Shown here: positions 4,272-32,708 of the stretch, in pieces
Layout of the letters: the number at the start of each line of letters is the position of its first letter
How positions within the stretch are numbered: the first letter of the stretch is position 1
Virus record (IMG/VR): IMGVR_UViG_3300028886_000089
Location: 5,080 to 69,079 of that record
Length of the DNA stretch: 64,000 nucleotides
Strand: one strand, 5' to 3'
Source: a virus
Lineage: Duplodnaviria > Caudoviricetes
Notes under the pieces: model-generated
Databases searched by the model: none
Told to the model about the DNA's origin: nothing
The model's input: only the letters and a program-made list of their open reading frames with translations
Position numbers and translations under genes: made by a program

Positions 4272-7200
4272 CTAAAACTCTACTTCACATTTAAAAATTG
4301 CTTTAGATGCAACATCTTCTGGGCCTATTGTTATACTTTGACCACCAGGCAGCCTTGCCCATGTCTCATCTTTAATTCCATCTTTGTCATATTTAACCCA
4401 AGTAAATTTAGTTACTTGGTCGGTTATTTCATGTTCTGGGTCCATTCCACTACCTTGATATACATGACAAGTTAATGTCGCTCGTACATCTTGACGTACA
4501 AACATATTACCAGTTGAAGAATCAATTATTACAGTAATTGCATCTTCTCCATCTTGTCCAGGGGTTATTGGAATCGGATTCTCATCATCGTCATAACCTT
4601 CATAAATTGTATCTGCATTAATTATTAATCTATATTCGTTGGCTGTTTTATCATAATAATAAGTAATAAAGTTTTTATTGTCTCCTATATACATATTATT
4701 AGTATAAATACCTTGTGTACCTATCATATTATTATATATAGAAGAATTAACATTAATATTACTTTCTATTGGGTCAGGTAAAGTACCTAAAATACCTCTA
4801 TATTTATAACTAACTTTTGGAGATTTGCTTGGATCAATAATAGTCTCAAACAAACTTATTGCACGACGTGGTAAATTAACAGTATTATCTGAACTATTAA
4901 TTCCAATTCCATAATTAGATGAACCATCTTCACGGCCCATATCTACAAGCGCGCCGCCCTCAAGTCCTGCTAATACATCAGCTATTGTTTGATCTTGTTG
5001 AATAACACCATTAATAAATTGTATACCATTCTCTAAAGTAACTTCAGCTGTATTAAGATTTACGTCCAATACTCTATATACATGAATTAATCCATTTGAT
5101 AATAAAATATTATTTACATTTGGTTCTGTTCCATCGGTAGTATAATTACTAATTTTACACCAGCTTTGGAACTCTGTATGCATTTCATAATATTCATTTT
5201 CATGTGGATTACCCACAGGTGTATCAACTATTATATATCCATAATTTCCTTTAATATAATAAGTTTTTGAAATATCTATAGTAGTATCTTCACTTAAAGT
5301 ATAAACTGCTTTAGCAAATAATGCTGGTTTTTCAACCTTTAAAACCAAACTATTACCACTAATTCGTGCAGATTTAATGGTGGAAGATGGTCTAAAAATA
5401 AATATACCACCAACCGCTTGAATTTCTGCATATTCAAATACGGCTGTCTTAATAGCTCCGCGTGCCGTTATATTATTGAAAACAGCATCGCCATCTTTAT
5501 TAATCATCCAACCATATCCAGCCCCGTCCTCGTAATTAGAAGATTTAATTTTGGCGCTTTCACCATCAATAATAATATGTTCTTGTCCCTGACCTGTTGG
5601 ACCTACATTTACTCGTCCTAAAAAATCGCCTTGTAAAGCTGTAATAGTACCACGAACATTTGCATTATTAAAAGTAGCCCCATTATCATCTATGTGCCAA
5701 CCGGTTTGATTTTGTATAGACCAATTACTTGATTCAATGGCTCCTTGCGCGCCAACTGTAATTGTATCAATTACTTCTAACTCACCTAATGTACCAGTTT
5801 GTGCTTCAATATGACCTCGTGCAGTAATTTGATTAAAAGTTGCATTACCATTGGTGTCAGAAATAATAAAAGTTGGATTATTATCTGTCTGAATTGTAGA
5901 ATAAATACCAACTCCGGGCTCAAGTACAATAGTATCCATAGTTAATGAATTATTATTAACTACCATACCACCGATATGACCACTTGTCGCAGTAATATCA
6001 CCTGTTATATGAATATTACCTTGGTCATCAGTTTTCATTACTTCTATACCAGCATTGTTCTTTATACGAATACCATATAATGAAGGTCCTAATTGTTTAA
6101 TATTTTCTGGTATTGTTGCCGGGTCTGTATAAATTGGGTCACCTTCATGCCAATTTTCTTGTTTCCATTCAAGTGCACCAATTTTAATTTTTTCATTTAA
6201 TTGATTATTAATAGTATTTAAAACTCTAAAATCATTATCTGAAGTAATTTCTACTCTACCACCGCCAGGATATGAATTTTTTATAAAAAATCCGTCCCAA
6301 GTAACAGCGAAATGTGCTTTATCTTTAATTTCTTCTAATGTATAAGGTTTTAATGAATTTCCATTTTTTATACCATATAAACCATTTTGGTCATATCGTA
6401 CAAAAGTTTGCAAATCATAAGCACTTATTATATTACCTTCAGCATCAGTCATTGTTCCATCAGATCTATATGCACTAATACCAGCTTGATCCCAACGGAA
6501 ACTCGGACTATCACTATTTCCAATAGTTATTAATTTCGTGCTTAAACTTCCAGTAATTATGGCATCAGCATTAACACCAAAACCATCAATTACATTTTTC
6601 CAGGTATTACCACCATCAGCAGAAACTGAAATTCCCTCATTATTAATTATAACACGATTAGTAGGATTAGTCAAATTCCGTATTAAAATTTCATTACCAT
6701 TAATAGTAATAGAACCATCAGTGGTTAAGGCGTATTTTTGACCGCTAATATTATTTAAAGAATTAAGTAATACATCAGAATTAATCGTGCCATTTGCATC
6801 AAGTAAAGTACTTATTTTGGCATAAGTAGCTTCATTATATTGCACAGTTTGAACTGTTGCGCTAATACGTTGAAACAAATCTTCAAACCGTGTTTTATAA
6901 TTTTGAACAGTAATAACATTATTTTCTGGCTCTTCTAAATGCCATTCAACTTCTGATACTATTACTTCTTCTCGCGCGGGAGTATATATAAACTCAGGAT
7001 TTTCTTCTGTTCCTATATTCTCTTTAGTCCACCCGAAAAATTCAGTATCTTCTACATAAGTTTTATCTCCAGCATCAAATGTATACCATTCAAACCCTTC
7101 AATTTCACTTATTTCAACTACATTAATTGTATATGAAACTGCAGGTTGCGCTGAAGTATTACTAACTTGTAAAGCATCAAGATAATAACGTTCAGAATCT

Positions 7201-12437: not shown

Positions 12438-12845
12438 ATGAGTAGATATGAAGAACAAGTTATTACATTGTTGCAAAAAGGTAGATATAAATTTGAAAGA
12501 GAAAAACGATTTAGTGATTTAAAACATGGGCTTTATCGTTTTGATTTTTACGTAGTAGGCGGCCGTGCCATTCCATGTGTCATAGAAGTCCAGGGAGAAG
12601 GTCATTATCAGTATGTTGATAAATTTTATCACTCGCGCGCAGAGTTCGAAGCGGCTAAAGAAAGAGACAGACGTAAAATAAGTTACTGTCTCGCACACAA
12701 TATCCCGATATATATAATTCCTTATTGGGAATTAGAAAACTTACATACATCAGCTGACTTATTCGATCCACGTTTTCGCGCGGCCAGCCGTTGGAAAAAC
12801 GACCAGGATTGGCAACAACAGCAAAATTTGACAAAAAGACGCTAA
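12438..12845 (+). CDS. Vsr/DUF559-like PD-(D/E)xK endonuclease
   Basis: YRFDFY...IEVQGEGHY...ERDRRKISYC...IPIYII motif. Confidence 0.75.
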   Translation: MSRYEEQVITLLQKGRYKFEREKRFSDLKHGLYRFDFYVVGGRAIPCVIEVQGEGHYQYVDKFYHSRAEFEAAKERDRRKISYCLAHNIPIYIIPYWELENLHTSADLFDPRFRAASRWKNDQDWQQQQNLTKRR

Positions 12846-12953: not shown

Positions 12954-14036
12954 ATGGAATTATATTTATTAATCGCTCTTCTTTTAGGTATTTTAATTAT
13001 TATTATATTATATTTACAATATAAAAAGAAAAAGAAATTAGTAGAAAAATTAATATTTGAAAAACATAAATTAGAAACATTAAGAAAGGACGAGATAAAA
13101 GACTACTTCAAAGAAGAGTGGAAACAAGAAAAAGATAAGTTAGATTATGAACGCAAGATATATGAATCAAATATATCTAATCGTCAGAATGAACTGGAAA
13201 GCCAATATAAGTTAGACGCCAGCAAATATGAGGGCGAAATTAAAAAATTAGAAGTTCATCTAAAGGAAAAAGAAAAACGATATAATGAAGTAAATCAAGA
13301 TTTAGACTTTTATCGTGAAGGTAAGATGAAAGAAATTGACGGTACGGCCGCAGAGTACGAACGGCGCAAACATAATCTTATCGACCAATCAATTGAAAAG
13401 TATCGCAACAAACAAATGACGCTTGCAAACGCTAAATTAGAATTAATGCAAGCAGAAAGAGACAACTACTTAAAAGAAATTGAAGAAATTAAAACCGACT
13501 TAGAAGCTGAACGTAGTAAGCGCGCAGCCATTAATGAAGAAATTTTACGAGCTCGCGCCCTCGAAGAACAACAAGACTTTTATCGTATTCAGCTTGACCC
13601 AGACGATACAAATGATATACAACTACTTCGTTCTATTACGGCGCGCCTTCGTCACCCAGAAGCAATCAACAAGGTCATTTGGACTGGTTATTATCAAAAG
13701 CCACTCGCAGAACTTCGCAAACGTATTTTGGTTAATGGTGATGTAAGTGGAGTTTATAAAATTACAAGGCTAAAAACAAATGAAATTTATATAGGACAAA
13801 CAACATCAGTTGATAAACGTTGGCAGGAACATGTCAAGTCAGCTTTAGGAGTTGGAACATTGGCGTCTTCACAACTCCACAGAGCGATGGCAACTGATGG
13901 ATGTGAAAATTTTACTTTTGAACTATTAGAGGTGGTTCCAAAAGACAAATTAAGAGAACGTGAATCATACTATATTGATTTCTACGATTCAAAAACTTAT
14001 GGACTTAACTCTGTTACCGGAGATAAGAATAAATAA
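12954..14036 (+). CDS. Membrane-anchored coiled-coil protein with C-terminal GIY-YIG nuclease domain
   Basis: N-terminal TM helix (LLIALLLGILIIIILYL), long coiled coil, GVYKIT...IYIGQT...RWQEH...E motif. Confidence 0.8.
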   Translation: MELYLLIALLLGILIIIILYLQYKKKKKLVEKLIFEKHKLETLRKDEIKDYFKEEWKQEKDKLDYERKIYESNISNRQNELESQYKLDASKYEGEIKKLEVHLKEKEKRYNEVNQDLDFYREGKMKEIDGTAAEYERRKHNLIDQSIEKYRNKQMTLANAKLELMQAERDNYLKEIEEIKTDLEAERSKRAAINEEILRARALEEQQDFYRIQLDPDDTNDIQLLRSITARLRHPEAINKVIWTGYYQKPLAELRKRILVNGDVSGVYKITRLKTNEIYIGQTTSVDKRWQEHVKSALGVGTLASSQLHRAMATDGCENFTFELLEVVPKDKLRERESYYIDFYDSKTYGLNSVTGDKNK

Positions 14037-17406: not shown

Positions 17407-17679
17407 ATGAATTATTATATTGAAGAAGATAAAACCTTTGATGAAATTATAGGTATTAAAAGTGCTGAAGTTAAATGTACTTTATCAAATGGAAAAACGC
17501 TTTTATTTAAAATTCCTAATATAATAGAAGGCTCTTTTTTATATAAAGGTGATGAAATTATTTGCAATAATCCTCGTTTTCTTCGTTATGTAATCGAACG
17601 AATGAATCAACGTATTTGTTTTAATTTTCCAGTTACCTGTGATGAGGATGGAATAGTATGTAAAATGGAGAAAATTTGA
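17407..17679 (+). CDS. Hypothetical protein
   Basis: AAGGAG RBS, 90 aa. Confidence 0.6.
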   Translation: MNYYIEEDKTFDEIIGIKSAEVKCTLSNGKTLLFKIPNIIEGSFLYKGDEIICNNPRFLRYVIERMNQRICFNFPVTCDEDGIVCKMEKI

Positions 17680-17681
17680 CT

Positions 17682-17717
17682 ATGGAAAAGGTTGATTTTA
17701 GTAAGGTGAGAGAGTGA
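17682..17717 (+). pseudogene. Stub copy of the GyrB C-terminus (MEKVDFSKVRE*)
   Basis: 17691-17713 GTTGATTTTAGTAAGGTGAGAGA is identical to 20042-20064 at the gyrB 3' end. Confidence 0.8.
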
Positions 17718-17911
17718 TGGGATATCAAGTACCGACTTATGTTATTATTAAAGATATAAATAATCTCTATTATATAGACAACTTAGGTCTACGATACGGA
17801 CCCTATCAAACAAAATGGGGTGCTAGACGAGCACTAAATAAATTAATTCATTCAAAAGAACCTATAATAATAGAACAATATGATGAAAAGGGGCAGTTAA
17901 TAAATGGATAA
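17714..17911 (+). CDS. Hypothetical protein
   Basis: Start overlaps the stop of the GyrB stub (GTGATG). Confidence 0.55.
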   Translation: MMGYQVPTYVIIKDINNLYYIDNLGLRYGPYQTKWGARRALNKLIHSKEPIIIEQYDEKGQLING

Positions 17912-18212
17912 ATGGCAAGCTTGTCCTCTATTTAAATGGTGTCCAAGTAAAACAGCAGCATGTAGAGTTTGTTTACCAGATGACGGATGCTATTGGTATA
18001 GATGGTTTGAACAACTAATAAAAGGAAATTTGACTATGGAAAAAAATCCAATTAAAATTACAATTGAAAATTATTGCGGGCAAATTGTTACATTCACAAT
18101 GTCGCCTGATGCAGAAATTGAATCAAGTCTTTGCATTATAGATGATAAAGTGACTGAAGTTCACATTAATGGATATGATAAAGACATACTAATTGAAAAA
18201 GAGGATATTTAA
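17904..18212 (+). CDS. Hypothetical protein (Cys-rich N-terminus; possible original start at the internal MEKNP near 18036)
   Basis: ORF coupled to the gyrB start; contains an 18-bp repeat at 18026-18043. Confidence 0.5.
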   Translation: MDKWQACPLFKWCPSKTAACRVCLPDDGCYWYRWFEQLIKGNLTMEKNPIKITIENYCGQIVTFTMSPDAEIESSLCIIDDKVTEVHINGYDKDILIEKEDI

Positions 18213-20068
18213 TGAATTACACAGCACAAGATATTGAAACTTTAAGCTTTCGCGATGCGGTGCGTGAACGTGTAGCTATGTATATGGGAAGTGCCGATAA
18301 TCAAGGGGTGCTTCAATGCGTGCGAGAGATTATAACCAACTCCATAGATGAAATGACTATGGGGTTTGGTAATACTATTTATGTAGAATTAGACAAAGAC
18401 AATTGTATAACTGTAAGTGATAATGCGCGTGGAGTTCCTTTTGGTTTGCGCGAAGATGGAACCGAAGCTATGGAAGCCATTTACACATTACCACATACGG
18501 GAGGTAAATTTAACGAAAAAATTTATCAAAACGTAGCAGGTCAAAACGGTATTGGTTCAAAAGGGGTTGCTTTATCTAGCTCCTTTTTTATGGCTGTTTC
18601 TACAAGAGATGGTCAGCAAGCTACTTTAGTTTTAAAAGATGGAATTAAAGAAAGTTTTACCATTGAAAAAAATATTGGTGGTAAAGAACATGGCACATTA
18701 GTTTGTTTTAAACCATCTCAAGAGGTATATAATTTAGAGCCAATACAAATTAATTTTGATGACTTAAAGGAAATGTGTCGTAATTGGTCTTATTTAACTA
18801 AAGGGGTTACTTTTAAGTTAGATAATTTAATTACAAACGAAACTGTTACATACAAATCTGAAAATGGAATACTTGATTTCCTTAAAGATTCAATTAAGAA
18901 ACCAATTCATAAAACACCGCTTTACATTTCAGTAAAAGAAGATGGAATTGAATGTGAGGTTGCTATGCAGTGGGCGGCCGACCGTAAAGAACATTGGTAT
19001 GTATTTACTAATGGACTTGCCAACGCAGAAGGCGGCACCTCGCTCACTGGCGTAAAAACAGCTATTACAAATTTCTTCAAAAAAAAATTCAAGGGTGAGT
19101 TTAGTCCTGAAGTAGCCAGGTCTGGTTTATTCTATGTGGTGAACTGTAAAGTTCCAAACCCTTCATTTGCAAATCAGACAAAAACGAAAGTGAATAATCC
19201 AGAGTTGCGCGGGCTCGCGCAACGTGCGACAGGACAGATGTTAGATGAGTTCAGTCGCAGATATGTGAATGAGTTCGATTCAATAATTGATTTGCTTACA
19301 AAAGAACTCAAAGCAGAGCGTGCCGCAGAGAAAGCACGCAAGCAAGTTCTTGAAGCATCGAAAGAAATTGAAAAGAATCAGAAGAAAAAAGTGTTTGCTT
19401 CTGACAAACTCAAAGATGCAGAGTTCCTCGGACCAAATGCAACACTTCTTGTAGTAGAAGGAAATAGTGCTATGGGTGGTATGGCTCAGGCAAGAGACTA
19501 TACAAAATATGGTATTTTAGCTATTAGAGGAAAGATTATCAACTGTCTTTCTAATCCAGAAGAAAAAATCTTCAATAATGAAGAAATCAAACTTCTTCTC
19601 TCAGCCATGAACATCGTTCCAGGCAAATATAATCCTTCCAAACTACGCTATGGACGTCTCGCAATCTGCACCGATGCCGATAGCGACGGCGCGCACATAG
19701 GTCTGCTTATAATGGCAGCTCTACAATATCTCGCGCCGGAGTTCATTAAAGAAGGCAGACTTTGTTGGCTTCGTTCTCCACTTTATATCGTTGAGAATAA
19801 AGGTAAAGAGTCATATTACTTTACTGATGATGAGTTTAATAAGGTGAGAAATAAGGTTAAAGGAGAAGTCACTCGTGCCAAAGGACTTGGTGAGCTTCCC
19901 GCAGAGACCGCGCGAGCTTCAATGTTTACACAAGAATATCAGCGTATTGATGTAATGGAATGGAATGACAGAGCAATTGATTTACTTTATGATTTAATGA
20001 GTGAAGATGTAGAACCAAGAAGAGATTTTATAATGAAGAAAGTTGATTTTAGTAAGGTGAGAGAATGA
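18212..20068 (+). CDS. gyrB: DNA gyrase/topoisomerase II subunit B
   Basis: EIITNSIDE, DNARGVP, HTGGKF, GQNGIGSK GHKL motifs; VEGNSA, IRGKI, TDADSDG TOPRIM; KGLGE. Confidence 0.95.
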   Translation: MNYTAQDIETLSFRDAVRERVAMYMGSADNQGVLQCVREIITNSIDEMTMGFGNTIYVELDKDNCITVSDNARGVPFGLREDGTEAMEAIYTLPHTGGKFNEKIYQNVAGQNGIGSKGVALSSSFFMAVSTRDGQQATLVLKDGIKESFTIEKNIGGKEHGTLVCFKPSQEVYNLEPIQINFDDLKEMCRNWSYLTKGVTFKLDNLITNETVTYKSENGILDFLKDSIKKPIHKTPLYISVKEDGIECEVAMQWAADRKEHWYVFTNGLANAEGGTSLTGVKTAITNFFKKKFKGEFSPEVARSGLFYVVNCKVPNPSFANQTKTKVNNPELRGLAQRATGQMLDEFSRRYVNEFDSIIDLLTKELKAERAAEKARKQVLEASKEIEKNQKKKVFASDKLKDAEFLGPNATLLVVEGNSAMGGMAQARDYTKYGILAIRGKIINCLSNPEEKIFNNEEIKLLLSAMNIVPGKYNPSKLRYGRLAICTDADSDGAHIGLLIMAALQYLAPEFIKEGRLCWLRSPLYIVENKGKESYYFTDDEFNKVRNKVKGEVTRAKGLGELPAETARASMFTQEYQRIDVMEWNDRAIDLLYDLMSEDVEPRRDFIMKKVDFSKVRE

Positions 20069-20397
20069 TTAATTGTTATATAAGAATAGGTTTTATAGTA
20101 AATGAAAACGAATATGAAACCGTTTGTACAAATATCTCTTCTTTATTTACTAAAGACATACAAATTATTAAAACTTCAGAATACTGTTTAATCAATAGTT
20201 CAATATTATTAATTAGAATCTTTAAATATAAGAATGAAAAAACCATTTCTTTAATTATTAAAAGTGGTAGATATGTATTATTGATTATATCAGATAATAT
20301 AACAATTCAACCTAACAATTTTAGCTTATTAGTAGACTTGTGTAATTTAGGAAATATTTGGAAAAAACATTTTAACATAGAGGAAACAGATGAGTAA
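20065..20397 (+). CDS. Hypothetical AT-rich protein inserted between gyrB and gyrA
   Basis: ATGA overlap with gyrB; very AT-rich. Confidence 0.55.
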   Translation: MINCYIRIGFIVNENEYETVCTNISSLFTKDIQIIKTSEYCLINSSILLIRIFKYKNEKTISLIIKSGRYVLLIISDNITIQPNNFSLLVDLCNLGNIWKKHFNIEETDE

Positions 20398-20449
20398 TTT
20401 ACAACCAATTATAGAAGAATCAATGGAACAAATGGAACCATTTTTATAA
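20390..20449 (+). pseudogene. Displaced original GyrA N-terminus (MSNLQPIIEESMEQMEPFL*)
   Basis: 10/14 identity to the start of the 21231 ORF (MSNLLPIIEDSFTQ); has its own AGAGGA RBS. Confidence 0.8.
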
Positions 20450-20500
20450 AGTCCAAATGTGCCATTTCTACTTATATATAGAAGGCAAGGAGGAATAAAA

Positions 20501-21256
20501 ATGGGAGCAAAAATAAATGAAATAGGTAATACATATGGATATTTAACCGTTATTGATACCGCGCCAAGTAAAAATAATCGCGCCATGTGGTTATGTAAAT
20601 GTAAATGCGGCAATGAATGTATTGTTAGTGGTAAGGAATTACGCAGTGGACATACAAAGTCGTGTGGATGCCTTAAGCGCGAAGCCACTATAAAAAGAAA
20701 CATAGAACGAGGTGGCGGAGATTTAACAGGACAAAGATTTGGTAAATTAACTGTTTTAGGTTTTGAAAAATGGTTAGACCGAAACAATGGGCATAGAGAT
20801 AGAATGTGGCGTTGTAAGTGTGATTGTGGTAATGAATGTGTAGTTAATCATAGATATTTAAGGTTTGGGGATACTGAATCTTGTGGTTGCACGAAGTCGC
20901 GCGGCAATGCAACAATTATGCGATGGTTAAATTCTAATCATTATGAATATCAAGCAGAATATCGTTTTAAAGATTTGGTAAGCCAATATAATAATATCCC
21001 ATATCAATTTGACTTTGCTATTTTTGATAATGGCAATTTAAAATTTCTCATTGAATATCAAGGAAACATTCATTTTAAAACCACTCCTGGTGGTTGGAAT
21101 GATGAAAAAGCACTTGCTGATTGTCAAAAACGAGATAAAATAAAATTTGATTATTGCAATCAAAACAATATACCATTATATTATATTACTTATGAAGAAA
21201 TTATAGAAGATAGACTAAAGGAGATTATGAATGAGCAATTTATTGCCAATAATTGA
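20501..21256 (+). mobile_element. Free-standing homing endonuclease: two CxCxCG..SCGC repeats plus a C-terminal Vsr-like (EDxHD-type) nuclease domain
   Basis: GGAGG RBS before ATG 20501 (track start 20459); WLCKCKCGNE..SCGC twice; QFDFAI..IEYQGNIHF..KRDKIKFDYC; overlaps the gyrA start by 26 nt. Confidence 0.8.
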
Positions 21257-23582
21257 AGATAGTTTTACTCAATATAGTTCAGCGGTTATACAATCAAGAG
21301 CATTAGTAGATGTGCGCGATGGTCTTAAACCATCTGCACGCCAAATCTTTTATTCAATGTTAATTCGCAAACTAACACCAGATAAACCATATAAAAAGAC
21401 CGCCAATGCCGTTGGTATGGCTATGGCAGATTTCTATATTCATGGCGATAGTTCTTGTGAAGGAGTAATCATGAGAGCAGGTCAGCCATTTGCCATGCGT
21501 TATCCACTGATTGATGTAAAAGGTAATTATGGCTCTTTAATAGAGTCCGGCAATTATGCGGCTATGCGTTATACGGAAAGTCGCTTATCTAAATTGGGCG
21601 CTTATCTTTTTAATGATATAGATAAAGAAACTATTAATGAGTGGAAAGATAGTTATGATAATACCAAACAATACCCAGCAGTATTACCAACCAAAGGATA
21701 CTATAATGTATGCAATGGTAGCATGGGTATAGCGGTAGGTATGGCTTGCTCAATTCCTCAATATAATTTAAAAGAAATGAATCAAGTCCTCGAACACTTA
21801 CTTCTCAATCCAGAATGTAGTTTCGATGATATATATATTGCGCCAGACTTTGCTACGGGCGCAGTATTACTTAATGAAGACGAAGTTAAAGAGTCGATGA
21901 AGAAAGGAACTGGCTTCGCTTGCAAGCTTCGTAGTGTCGTAGATTATGATAAGAAAGAAAACTGCTTTGTGGTTACCGAAATACCATATTCAGTTTATAC
22001 TAACACAATCTGCGGCGAGTTGGAAGATATAATCAATGGAGAAGAAAATCCAGGCGTTGATAGGTTCAATGACCTGACTGGTAAAACTCCTTTAATCAAA
22101 ATCTATCTGACGAAGCGCGCGAACCCAAACAAAGTATTAAAATATCTCTATAAAAATACCTCGCTTCAATCTCATTACTCAATTAACTTTACAATGCTTG
22201 ACAACGGTCGCTTTCCAAGAGTATTCACATGGAAAGAAATGCTTCAAGCACATATCGACCACGAAAAAGAGGTATATATGCGTGGTTTCCAATTCGATTT
22301 AAAGAAAATCGAAGACAGACTCCACATAATTGAAGGACTACTTGTTTGTCTCGCGAATATCGACGAGGTAGTCCGAACAATTAAAAACTCCGAGTCTACG
22401 CAAAAGGCGCGCGAGCGACTTATGGCATCATATAATCTCGATGAAGCACAAACAAAAGCCATTCTTGATATGAAGCTATCTCGTCTTGCACATCTCGAAG
22501 TTGAAAAATTATTTTCTGAAAAGTCAAAACTTGAAAAAGAAAGAGATTTCATTTATAATATAATTAACAATGAAAGTGAGTTTAATGCTCAACTCATTAA
22601 AGGGTGGCGAGAAGTCGCAGACAAATTCGGTGATGCCCGCCGCACTCAAATTTTAAATATCTCAAAGGACGATGAAGAGCCTGCCGAAAGACAAGAACTC
22701 CTCATTAACCTATCCAATCAGAACAATATCTACATAACAACCACTTCAACCCTCTATACTCAGAGACGCGGCGGTGTAGGTAATAAGTTCAAAATGAGTA
22801 AAGGAGAATATGTAATTGCGACCGCTTCGGGAACCAATCTCGATACTGTCCTCCTATTCTCCAATCGTGGAAATTGCTACCACATAACACCTTCCGAATT
22901 ACCTTTCGAACAGGTAGTTCCAATCGAAAGCATAGTTGAAATCCAAGCAAAAGAAAAAATCGAAGAACTTGTTTTTCTTAACAAAAAGAAACAAAAAGAA
23001 CACATAATCTTTTTCACGAAAAAAGGTATTTTAAAGAAAAGTAGGCTTTCAGAGTATAACATCAAACGGAAAGTTGGTGTTAAGGCTCTAAACTTAGATA
23101 ACGACGATGAAATTGTGTCAATTCTTTTTGTGAATGAAGAACGAGTTGGTATGATGACTGCGCGCGGCCAGTTCGTAGTGTGTGAGACAAAGGATGTGCG
23201 ACCAATCGGTCGCGCAGCAAGGGGAGTTAAGGGTATAACTCTTAACGATGGAGATTCTCTTGTATCTGCAAAGGTTATTCCAGCTGATACAAAAGAATAT
23301 TTAAGCGTAAGTGAAAAAGGATATATTAAACGAACAACCGCAAAAGATTTCACAGTTACCGGAAGGGCAACTAAAGGAAGTAAAATCCACTCACTCAAAG
23401 ATGCAGATGATAAACTAATTGCATTTGCTCCAATTACTAATGAGCAGGAAACGATTGTAGTATCCTCAAATGCACAAATTAAAATCAATTTAAATGAAGT
23501 AAATCTACTTTCAAAGGGTGCTCAAGGAACTAAATCAATGAAACTGTCTAACGCAAAAGTAATTGGACTATTAGTTGTGTAG
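21231..23582 (+). CDS. gyrA: DNA gyrase subunit A with beta-pinwheel CTD and GyrA-box
   Basis: DVRDGLKPSARQI, HGDSS, AAMRYTE catalytic Tyr, QRRGGVG, GRAARGVKG and GRATKGSK blade repeats. Confidence 0.95.
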   Translation: MSNLLPIIEDSFTQYSSAVIQSRALVDVRDGLKPSARQIFYSMLIRKLTPDKPYKKTANAVGMAMADFYIHGDSSCEGVIMRAGQPFAMRYPLIDVKGNYGSLIESGNYAAMRYTESRLSKLGAYLFNDIDKETINEWKDSYDNTKQYPAVLPTKGYYNVCNGSMGIAVGMACSIPQYNLKEMNQVLEHLLLNPECSFDDIYIAPDFATGAVLLNEDEVKESMKKGTGFACKLRSVVDYDKKENCFVVTEIPYSVYTNTICGELEDIINGEENPGVDRFNDLTGKTPLIKIYLTKRANPNKVLKYLYKNTSLQSHYSINFTMLDNGRFPRVFTWKEMLQAHIDHEKEVYMRGFQFDLKKIEDRLHIIEGLLVCLANIDEVVRTIKNSESTQKARERLMASYNLDEAQTKAILDMKLSRLAHLEVEKLFSEKSKLEKERDFIYNIINNESEFNAQLIKGWREVADKFGDARRTQILNISKDDEEPAERQELLINLSNQNNIYITTTSTLYTQRRGGVGNKFKMSKGEYVIATASGTNLDTVLLFSNRGNCYHITPSELPFEQVVPIESIVEIQAKEKIEELVFLNKKKQKEHIIFFTKKGILKKSRLSEYNIKRKVGVKALNLDNDDEIVSILFVNEERVGMMTARGQFVVCETKDVRPIGRAARGVKGITLNDGDSLVSAKVIPADTKEYLSVSEKGYIKRTTAKDFTVTGRATKGSKIHSLKDADDKLIAFAPITNEQETIVVSSNAQIKINLNEVNLLSKGAQGTKSMKLSNAKVIGLLVV

Positions 23583-30089: not shown

Positions 30090-31843
30090 TGAAATGTAAA
30101 TTAGTAAATAAAGATATAAGACAAAATTATACAAATGAATTACTTATGGAGCGCGGACTGAGTCCCGTTGAATTAGAATATTTTCTAAACCCCGACGGCT
30201 CATATCTTCAGTCTCCTTATGGCTTAGATTATATAAACCAGGCTAGACGTATGTTTGATACTATGGTTAATCAAACAGCTGAAGATACAATTATGGTAGT
30301 AGTTGATTCCGATGTAGATGGTTTTACTTCCGCAGCAATTTTCATTCAGTATCTACGTAAGTTTAATAAAGAAGTTAAAGTGATTCCTATACTCCATAGC
30401 GGAAAGGGACATGGATTATCAGATACCTACGAGAAAATTAGTAGTCAAATTGAAGATGGTGAAAATGTAAAGTTTGTAGTACTTCCAGATGCAGGCAGTA
30501 ATGACTTTGAATATATTGAAAAACTTGGAAATAATTATGGAATTAATTGTTTAATTCTTGACCACCATATTGTAGAACCAGATACTCATTTTTCAGACTA
30601 TGCAGTTATTGTAAATAATCAGTTGTCTCCAAATTATGTTAATAAAGAATTATGTGGTGCAGGAGTAACTTGGCAGTTTTGTAGATGGTGTGATATACTT
30701 TATCATACTAATTATGCCGATGAATTTATCGACCTGGCCGCACTTGGTCTAATTTCTGATATGATGTCGATGTTATCACTTGAGAATAGATATATCGTCC
30801 ATACAGGTCTTAATAATATAAATAACTATTTCTTTCAAGCATTATGTGAAAAGCAATCATTCTCAATGGGCGGCAAAGTAAATCCAATCAGTGTAGCCTT
30901 TTATATAACCCCACTTATCAACGCAATGATTCGCGCGGGCGCGCAAGAAGAAAAAGAACGTTGTTTCCAAGCCTTTATTGACGGACATGCACTGGTCGAA
31001 TCTCATAAGCGTGGTGCGAAGGGAACCTACGAAGAAGTTGCCATTGAGTCCGCGCGCGAGTGTACGAATGCACGTGCGAAGCAGAATCGTATACTTGATA
31101 AAGCAGTTGAGGAGCTTGAAATTAAAATTGCAAAGCATGATTTACTTTCAAATAAGGTATTATTTATTAGATTAGAAGAAGACGACCAATTCCCGCCAGA
31201 GTTAAATGGACTTGTAGCTATGAAGCTGAGCGCAAAGTATAAGAAGCCAACCATAGTGGCGCGCCTTAACGAAGAGGGAGAGATTAAAGGGTCAAGTAGA
31301 GGTTTAAATGAATCAGAACTTACATCTTTTAAAAACTTCATGGATAATAGCGGTTATTTCACTTTCACTGCAGGCCATGATAACGCATGTGGTATAGGGA
31401 TTTTAGATAAGAACCTTGCCGCTTTCCATGAATATGCGAATAAAGAACTTGCCAATGTAGATTTTGGTGAGTCATGGTATGAAGTTAATTTTGAACGCAT
31501 CGCTGCAGATACTGACATTGAAGATTTAATTATAGATATTGCAAGTCATGAAGATTTGTGGGGACAGCAAAATCCACAGCCTTTAATTCATATTAAGGAT
31601 ATTAACATAACGAAAAACGATATACAGATAATGGGACGCAGTGCAGATACCGTTAAAATTACCAAGTTCGGTATTGCTTATTTAAAGTTCCATGCAAAAG
31701 ATTTCATTGAAGAACTTGGTAAATATGATAATATAAAATTAGAGGTTGTTGGAAGGGCGAACCTGAACGAGTGGATGGGAAATTTCACTAGTCAAATTTT
31801 TATAGATAACTATCAAATAGAAGATGGAACATTGGGGTTTTAA
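30089..31843 (+). CDS. recJ: RecJ-like ssDNA exonuclease (DHH family)
   Basis: DSDVDGFTS, PDAGSND, LDHH, ELCGAGV, GSSRG, AGHDNACG. Confidence 0.9.
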   Translation: MKCKLVNKDIRQNYTNELLMERGLSPVELEYFLNPDGSYLQSPYGLDYINQARRMFDTMVNQTAEDTIMVVVDSDVDGFTSAAIFIQYLRKFNKEVKVIPILHSGKGHGLSDTYEKISSQIEDGENVKFVVLPDAGSNDFEYIEKLGNNYGINCLILDHHIVEPDTHFSDYAVIVNNQLSPNYVNKELCGAGVTWQFCRWCDILYHTNYADEFIDLAALGLISDMMSMLSLENRYIVHTGLNNINNYFFQALCEKQSFSMGGKVNPISVAFYITPLINAMIRAGAQEEKERCFQAFIDGHALVESHKRGAKGTYEEVAIESARECTNARAKQNRILDKAVEELEIKIAKHDLLSNKVLFIRLEEDDQFPPELNGLVAMKLSAKYKKPTIVARLNEEGEIKGSSRGLNESELTSFKNFMDNSGYFTFTAGHDNACGIGILDKNLAAFHEYANKELANVDFGESWYEVNFERIAADTDIEDLIIDIASHEDLWGQQNPQPLIHIKDINITKNDIQIMGRSADTVKITKFGIAYLKFHAKDFIEELGKYDNIKLEVVGRANLNEWMGNFTSQIFIDNYQIEDGTLGF

Positions 31844-31845
31844 TT

Positions 31846-32631
31846 ATGATTTATCAAGGAAGTAAAAATAAATATGCCGATAGTATAGTACCAATTTTAC
31901 AAAAATTAATTGATGATAATAATATTCAATTATATGTTGAGCCATTTGTAGGCGGTGCAAATATAATAGATAAAATTAATTGTCCACATAAATATGGAAT
32001 AGATAAAAATTATTCTTTAATTTGTTTATTAAGAAAAGCTCAAGAAGCTCCAGAAGATATACCATCAACTGGAAGTAAAGAATTGTGGTATCAAGCCAAA
32101 GATATCTATAGACGTTATAAAGGTGAACCACAAATGGAAGAAGAAATGGAAGGTTGGCGTATTGGAGCCATTCAATTTTTAGGTAGTTATAATAGAGGCG
32201 GTTTTAGTCGTGGTTATGCTAATTCCACAAAGGAACAAGATTTCTATAAACAAGCTTATGATAATTTAATAAAACAAGCTAAAGAACCAAAATTTAAAGA
32301 TATTATTTTTTGTCACTCTAATTATAATGAATTACAATTAGATGATAACTTTCCAACTCTAATTTATTGTGATCCACCATATGAAAACACTAAACCATAT
32401 GGATATAAATTCGAAACCGACTTTGACTATAAATATTATTGGAATTGGGTGCGAAAAATGAGTCAAAAACATATTGTAATATGTAGCGAACAAAATTTTC
32501 CATCTGATTTTAATATTATATGGCAAAAAGAAGTAAAACGAACTATGAATAATAAGCGTAAAACAGCTATTGAAAAACTTGGTATTTATAGCGGTGATTT
32601 AAATTGGAAGTTATTGGTAGAGCAAACGTAA
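31846..32631 (+). CDS. Dam/D12-class N6-adenine DNA methyltransferase
   Basis: YQGSK, YVEPFVGGANI, IYCDPPY. Confidence 0.85.
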   Translation: MIYQGSKNKYADSIVPILQKLIDDNNIQLYVEPFVGGANIIDKINCPHKYGIDKNYSLICLLRKAQEAPEDIPSTGSKELWYQAKDIYRRYKGEPQMEEEMEGWRIGAIQFLGSYNRGGFSRGYANSTKEQDFYKQAYDNLIKQAKEPKFKDIIFCHSNYNELQLDDNFPTLIYCDPPYENTKPYGYKFETDFDYKYYWNWVRKMSQKHIVICSEQNFPSDFNIIWQKEVKRTMNNKRKTAIEKLGIYSGDLNWKLLVEQT

Positions 32632-32708
32632 ATTATTGGGGCGGATATGCTACTCCACAGATTTTTATAAGTAATTATCAAATTGAAGATGGAACATTGA
32701 GGTTTTAA
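32601..32708 (+). pseudogene. Second copy of the last 35 codons of recJ
   Basis: KLEVIGRANVNYWGGYATPQIFISNYQIEDGTLRF* versus KLEVVGRANLNEWMGNFTSQIFIDNYQIEDGTLGF* (31736-31843), 26/35 identical. Confidence 0.85.

Follow-up and report, generated by a model that had tools for sequence, protein, structure and literature searches.

Organisation of the gyrA locus

The 69-kb viral record IMGVR_UViG_3300028886_000089 from IMG/VR (Duplodnaviria; Caudoviricetes) carries the genes of a gyrase-like type II topoisomerase, in which a free-standing homing endonuclease gene (HEG) and a short duplicate of the gyrA start precede a complete gyrA. We analysed positions 5,080 to 69,079 of the record, a stretch of 64,000 nucleotides (nt) referred to as the window, whose numbering is used throughout. 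All features of the gyrA locus lie on the plus strand. It opens with a gyrB-like gene for the topoisomerase II ATPase subunit (18212..20068, 618 amino acids; Pfam DNA_gyraseB, Toprim and HATPase_c, PHROG 543), followed by a 110-amino-acid open reading frame (ORF) with no assigned function (20065..20397). The stop of the latter overlaps (ATGA) the start codon of a 19-codon ORF, the stub (20390..20449; ATG at 20390, TAA at 20447-20449), which encodes MSNLQPIIEESMEQMEPFL. A leader with a predicted hairpin comes next (20432..20500), and then the endonuclease gene (20501..21256, 251 amino acids). The complete gyrA-like gene (21231..23582, 783 amino acids; Pfam DNA_topoisoIV, E 3e-111, plus GyrA C-terminal repeats) overlaps the endonuclease ORF by 26 nt (21231-21256), and its ribosome-binding site, AAGGAG (21218..21223), lies within the codons for the conserved C-terminal LKEI of the endonuclease. 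AAGGAG or GGAGGA is likewise conserved upstream of the gyrA start in the related loci L002, L042 and L070.

An earlier reading made from the letters alone, here called the sequence-only reading, had described an orphan 19-residue ORF with a ribosome-binding site, a restart of full GyrA at 21231 and the position of that start inside the last 26 nt of the endonuclease ORF. We recovered all three, with GAGGAA upstream of the ATG at 20390 and the two starts agreeing at 10 of 14 residues and 27 of 42 nt. For comparison, 80 related loci were collected from IMG/VR using GyrA as the query. The 110-amino-acid ORF matched no Pfam or PHROG family, had no relative in IMG/VR and occurred in none of the 80 gyrA loci; what it shares with L001, a locus without the HEG, is limited to its final ~25 nt. 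A blastn search of 19500-22500 against 50,697 GenBank phage records gave no useful relative. Bovine gut metagenomes contain sequence near-identical to the window.

The 19-codon ORF resembles a native gyrA start

The first 42 nt of the stub are identical at 39 positions to the native gyrA start of HEG-less L015, from which it differs only by K5Q and at codon 13, against just 27 of 42 for the new gyrA start at 21231. Moreover, the 25 nt 5' of the stub ATG are the same as those 5' of the gyrA ATG in HEG-less L001, where gyrA starts exactly at the position of the stub start and encodes a GyrA 94% identical to that of the window. Given the agreement with L015 and this upstream identity, the stub is not a chance match. 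Its sequence identifies the 19-codon ORF as what appears to be the displaced native gyrA start, that is, a scar and not an exon. The sequence-only reading had expected the gyrA of HEG-less relatives to begin at the stub position, as it does, though the relatives read SMIQY or SFIQY in place of SMEQY.

The stub is hybrid in appearance, L001-like upstream and at Q5 and of the EESM type downstream. Codons 1-12 (20390-20425) correspond to the native gyrA start and codons 13-14 (20426-20431) to the type of the cassette donor, and the last five codons and the stop are cassette leader sequence. None of the other loci in the set of 80 gave a match to a strict peptide pattern for a second complete gyrA start; trimmed remnants of stubs emerged on DNA alignment only. 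A search with the upstream context of the stub returned the L001 contig as its sole match.

Distribution of the endonuclease gene and the left junction

Related rumen-phage contigs, about 60 in number, differ in whether they have the endonuclease gene at the gyrA site: this endonuclease occupies the site in five distinct contigs and is missing there from about 50. Same-site copies with 70-82% amino acid identity occur in L002/L081, L042 and L070, and another in L165, and the flanking gyrB genes of L002, L042 and L070 are merely 58-62% identical to that of the window. Every relative with this endonuclease at this place has, as in the sequence-only reading, a working gyrA start that belongs to another allele; this start accompanies the endonuclease gene and overlaps the 3' end of that gene. 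The cassette-borne gyrA N-terminus has kept the family pattern, a start codon (ATG/GTG) and a ribosome-binding site in all HEG-carrying loci. The stub is intact in the window only. In L070, it has lost the ATG and carries an indel, and its remnant is closer to the L015-type allele than to L054, the nearest relative of the L070 backbone. In L002, L042 and L165, it is down to three codons directly after the gyrB stop. A cassette placed right after the gyrB stop with a three-codon remnant (L002, L165 and run X3) is the commonest form.

The left end of the cassette is common to all HEG-carrying loci and reads ...CAA followed by ATGGAACC. Ten bases, AATGGAACAA, found at the left junction in the window (20422..20431), stand directly 3' of the gyrB stop in L002 and L165. 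One contig of run X3, ~97% identical to the window over 20422-22007, continues into gyrB sequence immediately 5' of 20422, and contig joints from runs X4 and X8 fall at the same position; the shared mobile segment therefore starts at 20422. The lack of cover at 20106-20408 in X3 and X4 carries no evidential weight. The tandem near-duplication pointed out in the sequence-only reading, ATGGAACAA and ATGGAACCA, is indeed present at 20423-20440, but insertion did not create it: L002 and L165, which have no full stub, carry the pair directly after the gyrB stop, as does run X3 and probably X4 and X8. The pair thus pre-existed in donors and marks the position of a short-homology junction.

The gap between gyrB and gyrA ranges from 3 to ~1750 nt and holds many different inserts. 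One of them, in L018 (4190-5070), is a GIY-YIG endonuclease gene that ends just before the gyrA start, and the L018 gyrA is the HEG-linked AAVIQSRAL allele. Either one endonuclease gene may have replaced another here or two enzymes may have a common target.

A mosaic gyrA and a candidate immunity substitution

Window gyrA is 75.3% identical to that of L001 over nt 1-507, and the identity rises to 89.9% and 93.7% downstream, whereas identity to HEG-carrying L002 is flat at 80-83% throughout. Contigs from three other runs break at 21738 (gyrA nt 507-508). The first ~507 nt therefore look foreign to the rest of the gene and fit a tract of co-converted donor, HEG-linked gyrA (21231..21738), with both the identity step and the contig breakpoints at its edge. 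The imported piece is far longer than the 14 recoded codons that the sequence-only reading had envisaged.

Within this tract, gyrA nt 58 reads A in each of the four HEG-carrying alleles scored, and 3 of the 52 HEG-less alleles share this base, a comparison among alleles related by descent. The change turns Leu20 into Ile (codon 20, ATA, 21288..21290) in the conserved GAVLQ motif, read as GAV(L/I)Q across alleles, and is a candidate immunity substitution. Judged from the allele comparison, substitutions around codon 20 are a more likely basis of immunity than splitting of the target by the insertion. A pseudo-palindrome at codons 19-22 (TTTTACAAAA) was considered as the target and dropped, since HEG-less alleles use five different codons for Leu20.

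The endonuclease has a Vsr-like nuclease domain

The endonuclease consists of two repeats of a Cys-rich beta module (CxCxCG...SCGC; residues 1-130) followed by a nuclease domain (residues 132-251, 20894-21253). Its AlphaFold model, built from 30 relatives, reached a pLDDT of 90.4. Structural comparison with VIA-align, from which alone the fold assignment came, superposed residues 132-251 on Vsr (1cw0; Z 10.1, root-mean-square deviation 2.6, 104 residues) and on the catalytic domain of I-Bth0305I (3r3p; Z 9.9, 96 of 98 residues). On this model, the enzyme belongs by its catalytic fold to the Vsr-like/EDxHD family, which bears out the Vsr-like assignment of the sequence-only reading; its activity is assumed. 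Across the 30 relatives, D171, E185, H191 and K215 are invariant and D212 nearly so; the acidic and histidine positions are candidates for the E, D, H and D catalytic residues of the family.

Other searches were less specific. The protein matches PHROGs 9084 and 7140, and its PHROG matches are families annotated as homing or intron-encoded nucleases; PHROGs 374 and 559 cover the N-terminal part and are shared with proteins annotated as HNH endonucleases. No Pfam family was found at E <= 0.01, and at E <= 10 only DUF2726, under its cut-off. A phmmer search against PDB sequences gave no match, and Foldseek against PDB gave nothing at E <= 0.001, only weak PD-(D/E)xK nucleases. The N-terminal part had no Pfam match to NUMOD or helix-turn-helix modules such as those of I-Bth0305I. 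There are at least 584 relatives of the endonuclease in IMG/VR, and in the topoisomerase loci its position varies with the phage, some having it 5' of gyrB and others in the gyrB-gyrA interval.

Elsewhere in the window, a stand-alone ORF of 135 amino acids (12438-12845) corresponds to the Vsr-like nuclease domain only, with 29% identity to the C-terminal half of the endonuclease. The next ORF (12954-14036, 360 amino acids) has a GIY-YIG-like motif at its end.

The cassette leader

In the predicted leader hairpin (arms 20438-20447 and 20495-20504), the start codon of the endonuclease gene and some of its ribosome-binding site are base-paired (minimum free energy -19.9 kcal/mol, z -3.05), so that the structure would mask the start. 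The leader is near-identical in the window, L002, L070 and L165, with compensatory change at three pairs. Hairpins of this kind have been described in the leaders of Vsr-like/EDxHD endonuclease genes (PMC2677866). Inside the leader, the motif CCATTTCTACTTATATATAGA (20462..20482) is invariant across HEG-carrying loci and occurs once in the window; it is possibly a promoter of this phage group. A sigma-70 promoter scan found sites no more numerous than in shuffled sequence. Scanning metagenome contigs with the leader pattern yielded one new locus, L165; two further candidates, L166 and L168, were chance matches. The one further occurrence of the motif in IMG/VR is in another phage contig, L162 (2560-2660), where, as CCATTTCTACTTAAATATAGA, it follows a hairpin and a T run and precedes an unrelated gene.

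Similar layouts at other genes

For every related endonuclease gene, the preceding 330 nt were compared with the sequence surrounding the stop codon of that gene. Strong flank duplications at the protein level were found at 8 of 71 endonuclease loci and at 2 of 121 shifted control positions; the window itself scored z 5.0, just at the threshold. Among the eight, the L127 duplication is of the endonuclease gene itself, and a single stub accounts for both L116 and L118, which leaves about six independent host-gene cases. In L131, a 77-residue N-terminal stub of NAD-dependent DNA ligase precedes a decayed endonuclease gene and a full, divergent ligA, and HEG-less L175 and L176 carry the stub-type ligA allele uninterrupted. 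L132 has a gyrA stub of ~17 codons (in a 21-codon ORF) abutting an endonuclease gene whose product is 34% identical to that of the window. In L116/L118, the stub is the N-terminal part of another gene.

C-terminal mirror images occur in L025/L026, L098 and L094. The endonuclease ORF of L026 (2221-2943), like that of L025, has no stop of its own and reads into the old last 13 gyrB codons (FILKKVDFSKVRE and the stop), and the working gyrB ends with a second, different copy of the tail just upstream.

L132 also has an HNH endonuclease ORF (471-915) directly 5' of its gyrA stub and Vsr-like gene, two nuclease genes in a row.

Homing-type gene conversion as the probable origin of the locus

We consider it probable that homing-type gene conversion replaced the 5' end of gyrA, leaving the displaced start as a scar joined to the cassette at 20422-20431. 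We infer a break, its approximate position and the route of its repair from the anatomy of the locus, and the same holds for the assignment of the break to this particular enzyme. The endonuclease of a co-infecting donor would have cut a HEG-less gyrA between about codon 12 and codon 24. At the right end, donor gyrA would have been copied by homology up to a crossover near 21738; at the left end, the ten bases AATGGAACAA would have provided the homology for the joint. Codons 1-12 of the recipient, with their ribosome-binding site, would thereby have been left in front of the cassette. The working gyrA would be translated from its own ATG at 21231, its first ~507 nt having arrived with the endonuclease gene from another phage. 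Substitutions such as that at nt 58 (Leu20 to Ile) would let the resident gyrA escape re-cutting. The element might also, as the sequence-only reading proposed, be locked in place by its overlap with gyrA.

The ten bases AATGGAACAA are most likely a remnant of an older stub travelling with the cassette, in which case each new invasion can regenerate a full stub. Two variants of the junction were considered, with endonuclease-driven gene conversion in both. The crossover may have occurred within the travelling stub remnant, or one-sided repair from an L002-type donor may have taken place at an AATG microhomology. We lean slightly towards the former, since the L070 remnant is L015-like and not L054-like and the window stub is a hybrid. 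The L070 remnant also makes it less parsimonious that L002-type loci are the ancestral intergenic form and that stubs arose by independent microhomology events, an origin that may nonetheless apply to the window itself.

Several points weigh against gene conversion by this enzyme. The putative cut site and immunity substitution are correlations among related sequences. The clade of the window has Q187 where many relatives have D, in the motif E-x-(D/Q)-G-x-x-H. The exact joint between stub and cassette is limited to the window record and runs X1 and X2, the probable source sample. An empty-site allele with the 110-amino-acid ORF upstream is hinted at by short contigs of run X8 only, whose joint of 20425 to 21309 has a short side of just 21 letters and amounts to no more than a hint. 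Finally, two duplications in the window flank cargo without an endonuclease. One is a gyrB 3' stub at 17674-17718. It belongs to a 354-bp insert between 18-bp direct repeats (AAATTTGACTATGGAAAA) at 17672-18043, which starts with a copy of the gyrB 3' end (MEKVDFSKVRE and the stop) ~500 nt upstream of gyrB and contains a 65-residue ORF and the N-terminal part of a 102-residue ORF, both found in the gyrB-gyrA gap of L006 and L015. The other is a duplication of the last 35 residues of a recJ-like gene (31736-31843 and 32601-32708; 26 of 35 identical). Short-homology cassette exchange thus happens here without this enzyme and is a frequent process in these phages.

Such exchange might also account for the gyrA locus itself. 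In that case, general short-homology recombination would have swapped the cassette together with the gyrA 5' end, using core-gene ends as handles, and the endonuclease gene would be passive cargo that made no break. A Sak4-like annealase and RecJ are encoded nearby, and the gyrB and recJ-like duplications and the variable contents of the gyrB-gyrA gap are what this explanation would lead one to expect. We nevertheless regard it as unlikely: flank duplications are enriched beside endonuclease genes relative to the shifted controls, a highly conserved gyrA motif has an allele-specific substitution that goes with the endonuclease gene, and the mosaic boundary adjoins that gene, as reported for other phage homing endonucleases (PMC10448857).

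The 19-codon ORF could instead have been kept as a working leader peptide, translationally coupled to the 110-amino-acid ORF and tuning expression of the endonuclease. It retains a ribosome-binding site and an open frame, its ATG overlaps the preceding stop, and its own stop lies inside the 5' arm of the hairpin (20438-20447), which translating ribosomes could open. Yet no other HEG-carrying locus has the full ORF, only a short MEQMEPFL version or none, and a recent origin accounts equally well for an intact stub. A retained leader function is therefore very improbable.

Still less credible is a group I (or other) intron, with the stub as exon 1, splicing from ~20431 to ~21273 and an intron-encoded endonuclease. 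A precedent exists in the Vsr-like I-Bth0305I, which sits in a group I intron of phage recA (PMC3239194), and an in-frame join would yield a plausible GyrA. However, an Rfam cmscan of 19800-21800 at E <= 10 found no intron, only two chance-level matches to non-intron families, and the room left for a ribozyme core is ~70 nt on the 5' side and 16 nt on the 3' side of the endonuclease ORF. Within the 42-nt duplication, no in-register position has a U before the 5' splice site and a G at the matching intron end. The supposed exon 1 is frameshifted in L070 and trimmed to three codons in L002, L042 and L165, with the N-terminus inside the element intact; this decay shows that the stub is not a functional, conserved upstream exon. 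Contigs from an RNA library run unbroken over 21093-21372, including 21273, a weak point since DNA was possibly present in the library; run X22, an RNA run that may include DNA, covers the region in part and says nothing firm on transcription. An intein is excluded by stop codons and reading frame: the stub stop (20447-20449) precedes the endonuclease ORF, which starts from a ribosome-binding site and ATG of its own and is not in frame with gyrA. The sequence-only reading, which saw neither intron nor intein, agrees with these results.

An assembly chimera of a HEG-less and a HEG-carrying phage from one sample would fit the absence of the exact junction from other samples, and is barely credible: the two forms share ~10 nt at the junction, presumably too short for a k-mer assembler, and runs X1 and X2, assembled separately by Logan, contain all sampled 31-mers of 20100-21600.

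Extending the preferred gene-conversion reading, a gut-phage clade of Vsr-like free-standing endonucleases might habitually move as gene-end replacement cassettes. Each would carry a resistant copy of the target end and use the displaced host end as a portable homology arm, a third way into essential ORFs beside introns and inteins in which the end of the stub marks the cleavage site. We put this forward tentatively, as a generalisation with the odds somewhat against it.

Relation to known systems

The proposed mechanism combines intronless homing by a free-standing endonuclease with one-sided repair, both of which are already known. The free-standing T-even endonucleases SegF, SegG, MobE and Hef are encoded beside conserved DNA-metabolism genes and absent from close relatives, and their intronless homing also involves flanking co-conversion, an ORF overlapping its neighbour and a hairpin apparently restraining expression (PMC2988022). 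The T4 endonuclease genes lie in intergenic gaps, with no displaced target piece described (PMC2988022), whereas here a stub of the target start, whole or decayed, lies beyond the endonuclease gene. One-sided homing in T4, with microhomology junctions, was demonstrated experimentally by Parker, Belisle and Belfort (1999, Genetics 153:1513), as cited in PMC2988022. In the account given there, homology on one side is combined with a microhomology junction on the other, as proposed here, and the process is put forward as a route to new sites; the system was a laboratory construct with the td intron.

Vsr-like/EDxHD endonucleases (Dassa et al. 2009, PMC2677866; Taylor et al. 2011, PMC3239194) resemble the window enzyme in fold, DNA-metabolism targets, free-standing copies and the leader hairpin. 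They have been found in introns, in split inteins and in one divided gene, gene-end replacement not being among their known contexts, and I-Bth0305I has N-terminal NUMOD/helix-turn-helix modules in place of two Cys-rich beta modules. Genes in pieces, such as Aeh1 nrdA with mobE and T4 genes 39/60 with mobA, likewise have an endonuclease gene in what was once a single essential ORF, without splicing, and in T4 the split ORF is itself a topoisomerase II gene (PMC2988022). In those cases, both pieces are needed and reassemble as subunits. In the window, downstream gyrA is full length with its own residues 1-14, and the upstream piece is made redundant by the complete gene that comes with the cassette.

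The nearest parallel comes from fungal mitochondria, where an endonuclease gene brings a gene end of foreign origin, the original end persisting as a pseudogene or being fused with the endonuclease ORF. Paquin and colleagues reportedly described in 1994 such a gene-end duplication beside a homing endonuclease gene in Allomyces atp6, and Gibb and Hausner, as cited in PMC7902536, are said to have described rps3-LAGLIDADG fusions in 2005. The C-terminal cases L026 and L098 look similar to these. The fungal cases differ in endonuclease family and genome type and mostly concern 3' ends.

In the phage literature searched, we did not find the architecture of a stub, an endonuclease gene and a complete replacement gene described. 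The spread of free-standing endonucleases to new sites and their entry into coding sequence without an intron or intein are known mainly from laboratory constructs. The loci reported here would be natural products at several stages, with a fresh stub in the window and decayed stubs in relatives, and the architecture recurs at gyrA, gyrB, the DNA ligase gene and other genes. If the end of a stub marks the break, cleavage sites and immunity substitutions of uncharacterised endonucleases could be predicted from sequence only. Some of the short orphan ORFs of phage genomes, and some of their mosaic boundaries, would also be explained by stubs.

A different arrangement was seen in L052 (2560-3720) and also in L061, where a GIY-YIG endonuclease gene splits gyrB within the Toprim motif, between ...DADSD and G.HIGLL..., without an intein. 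This is a topoisomerase gene in pieces and recalls T4 genes 39/60 with mobA.

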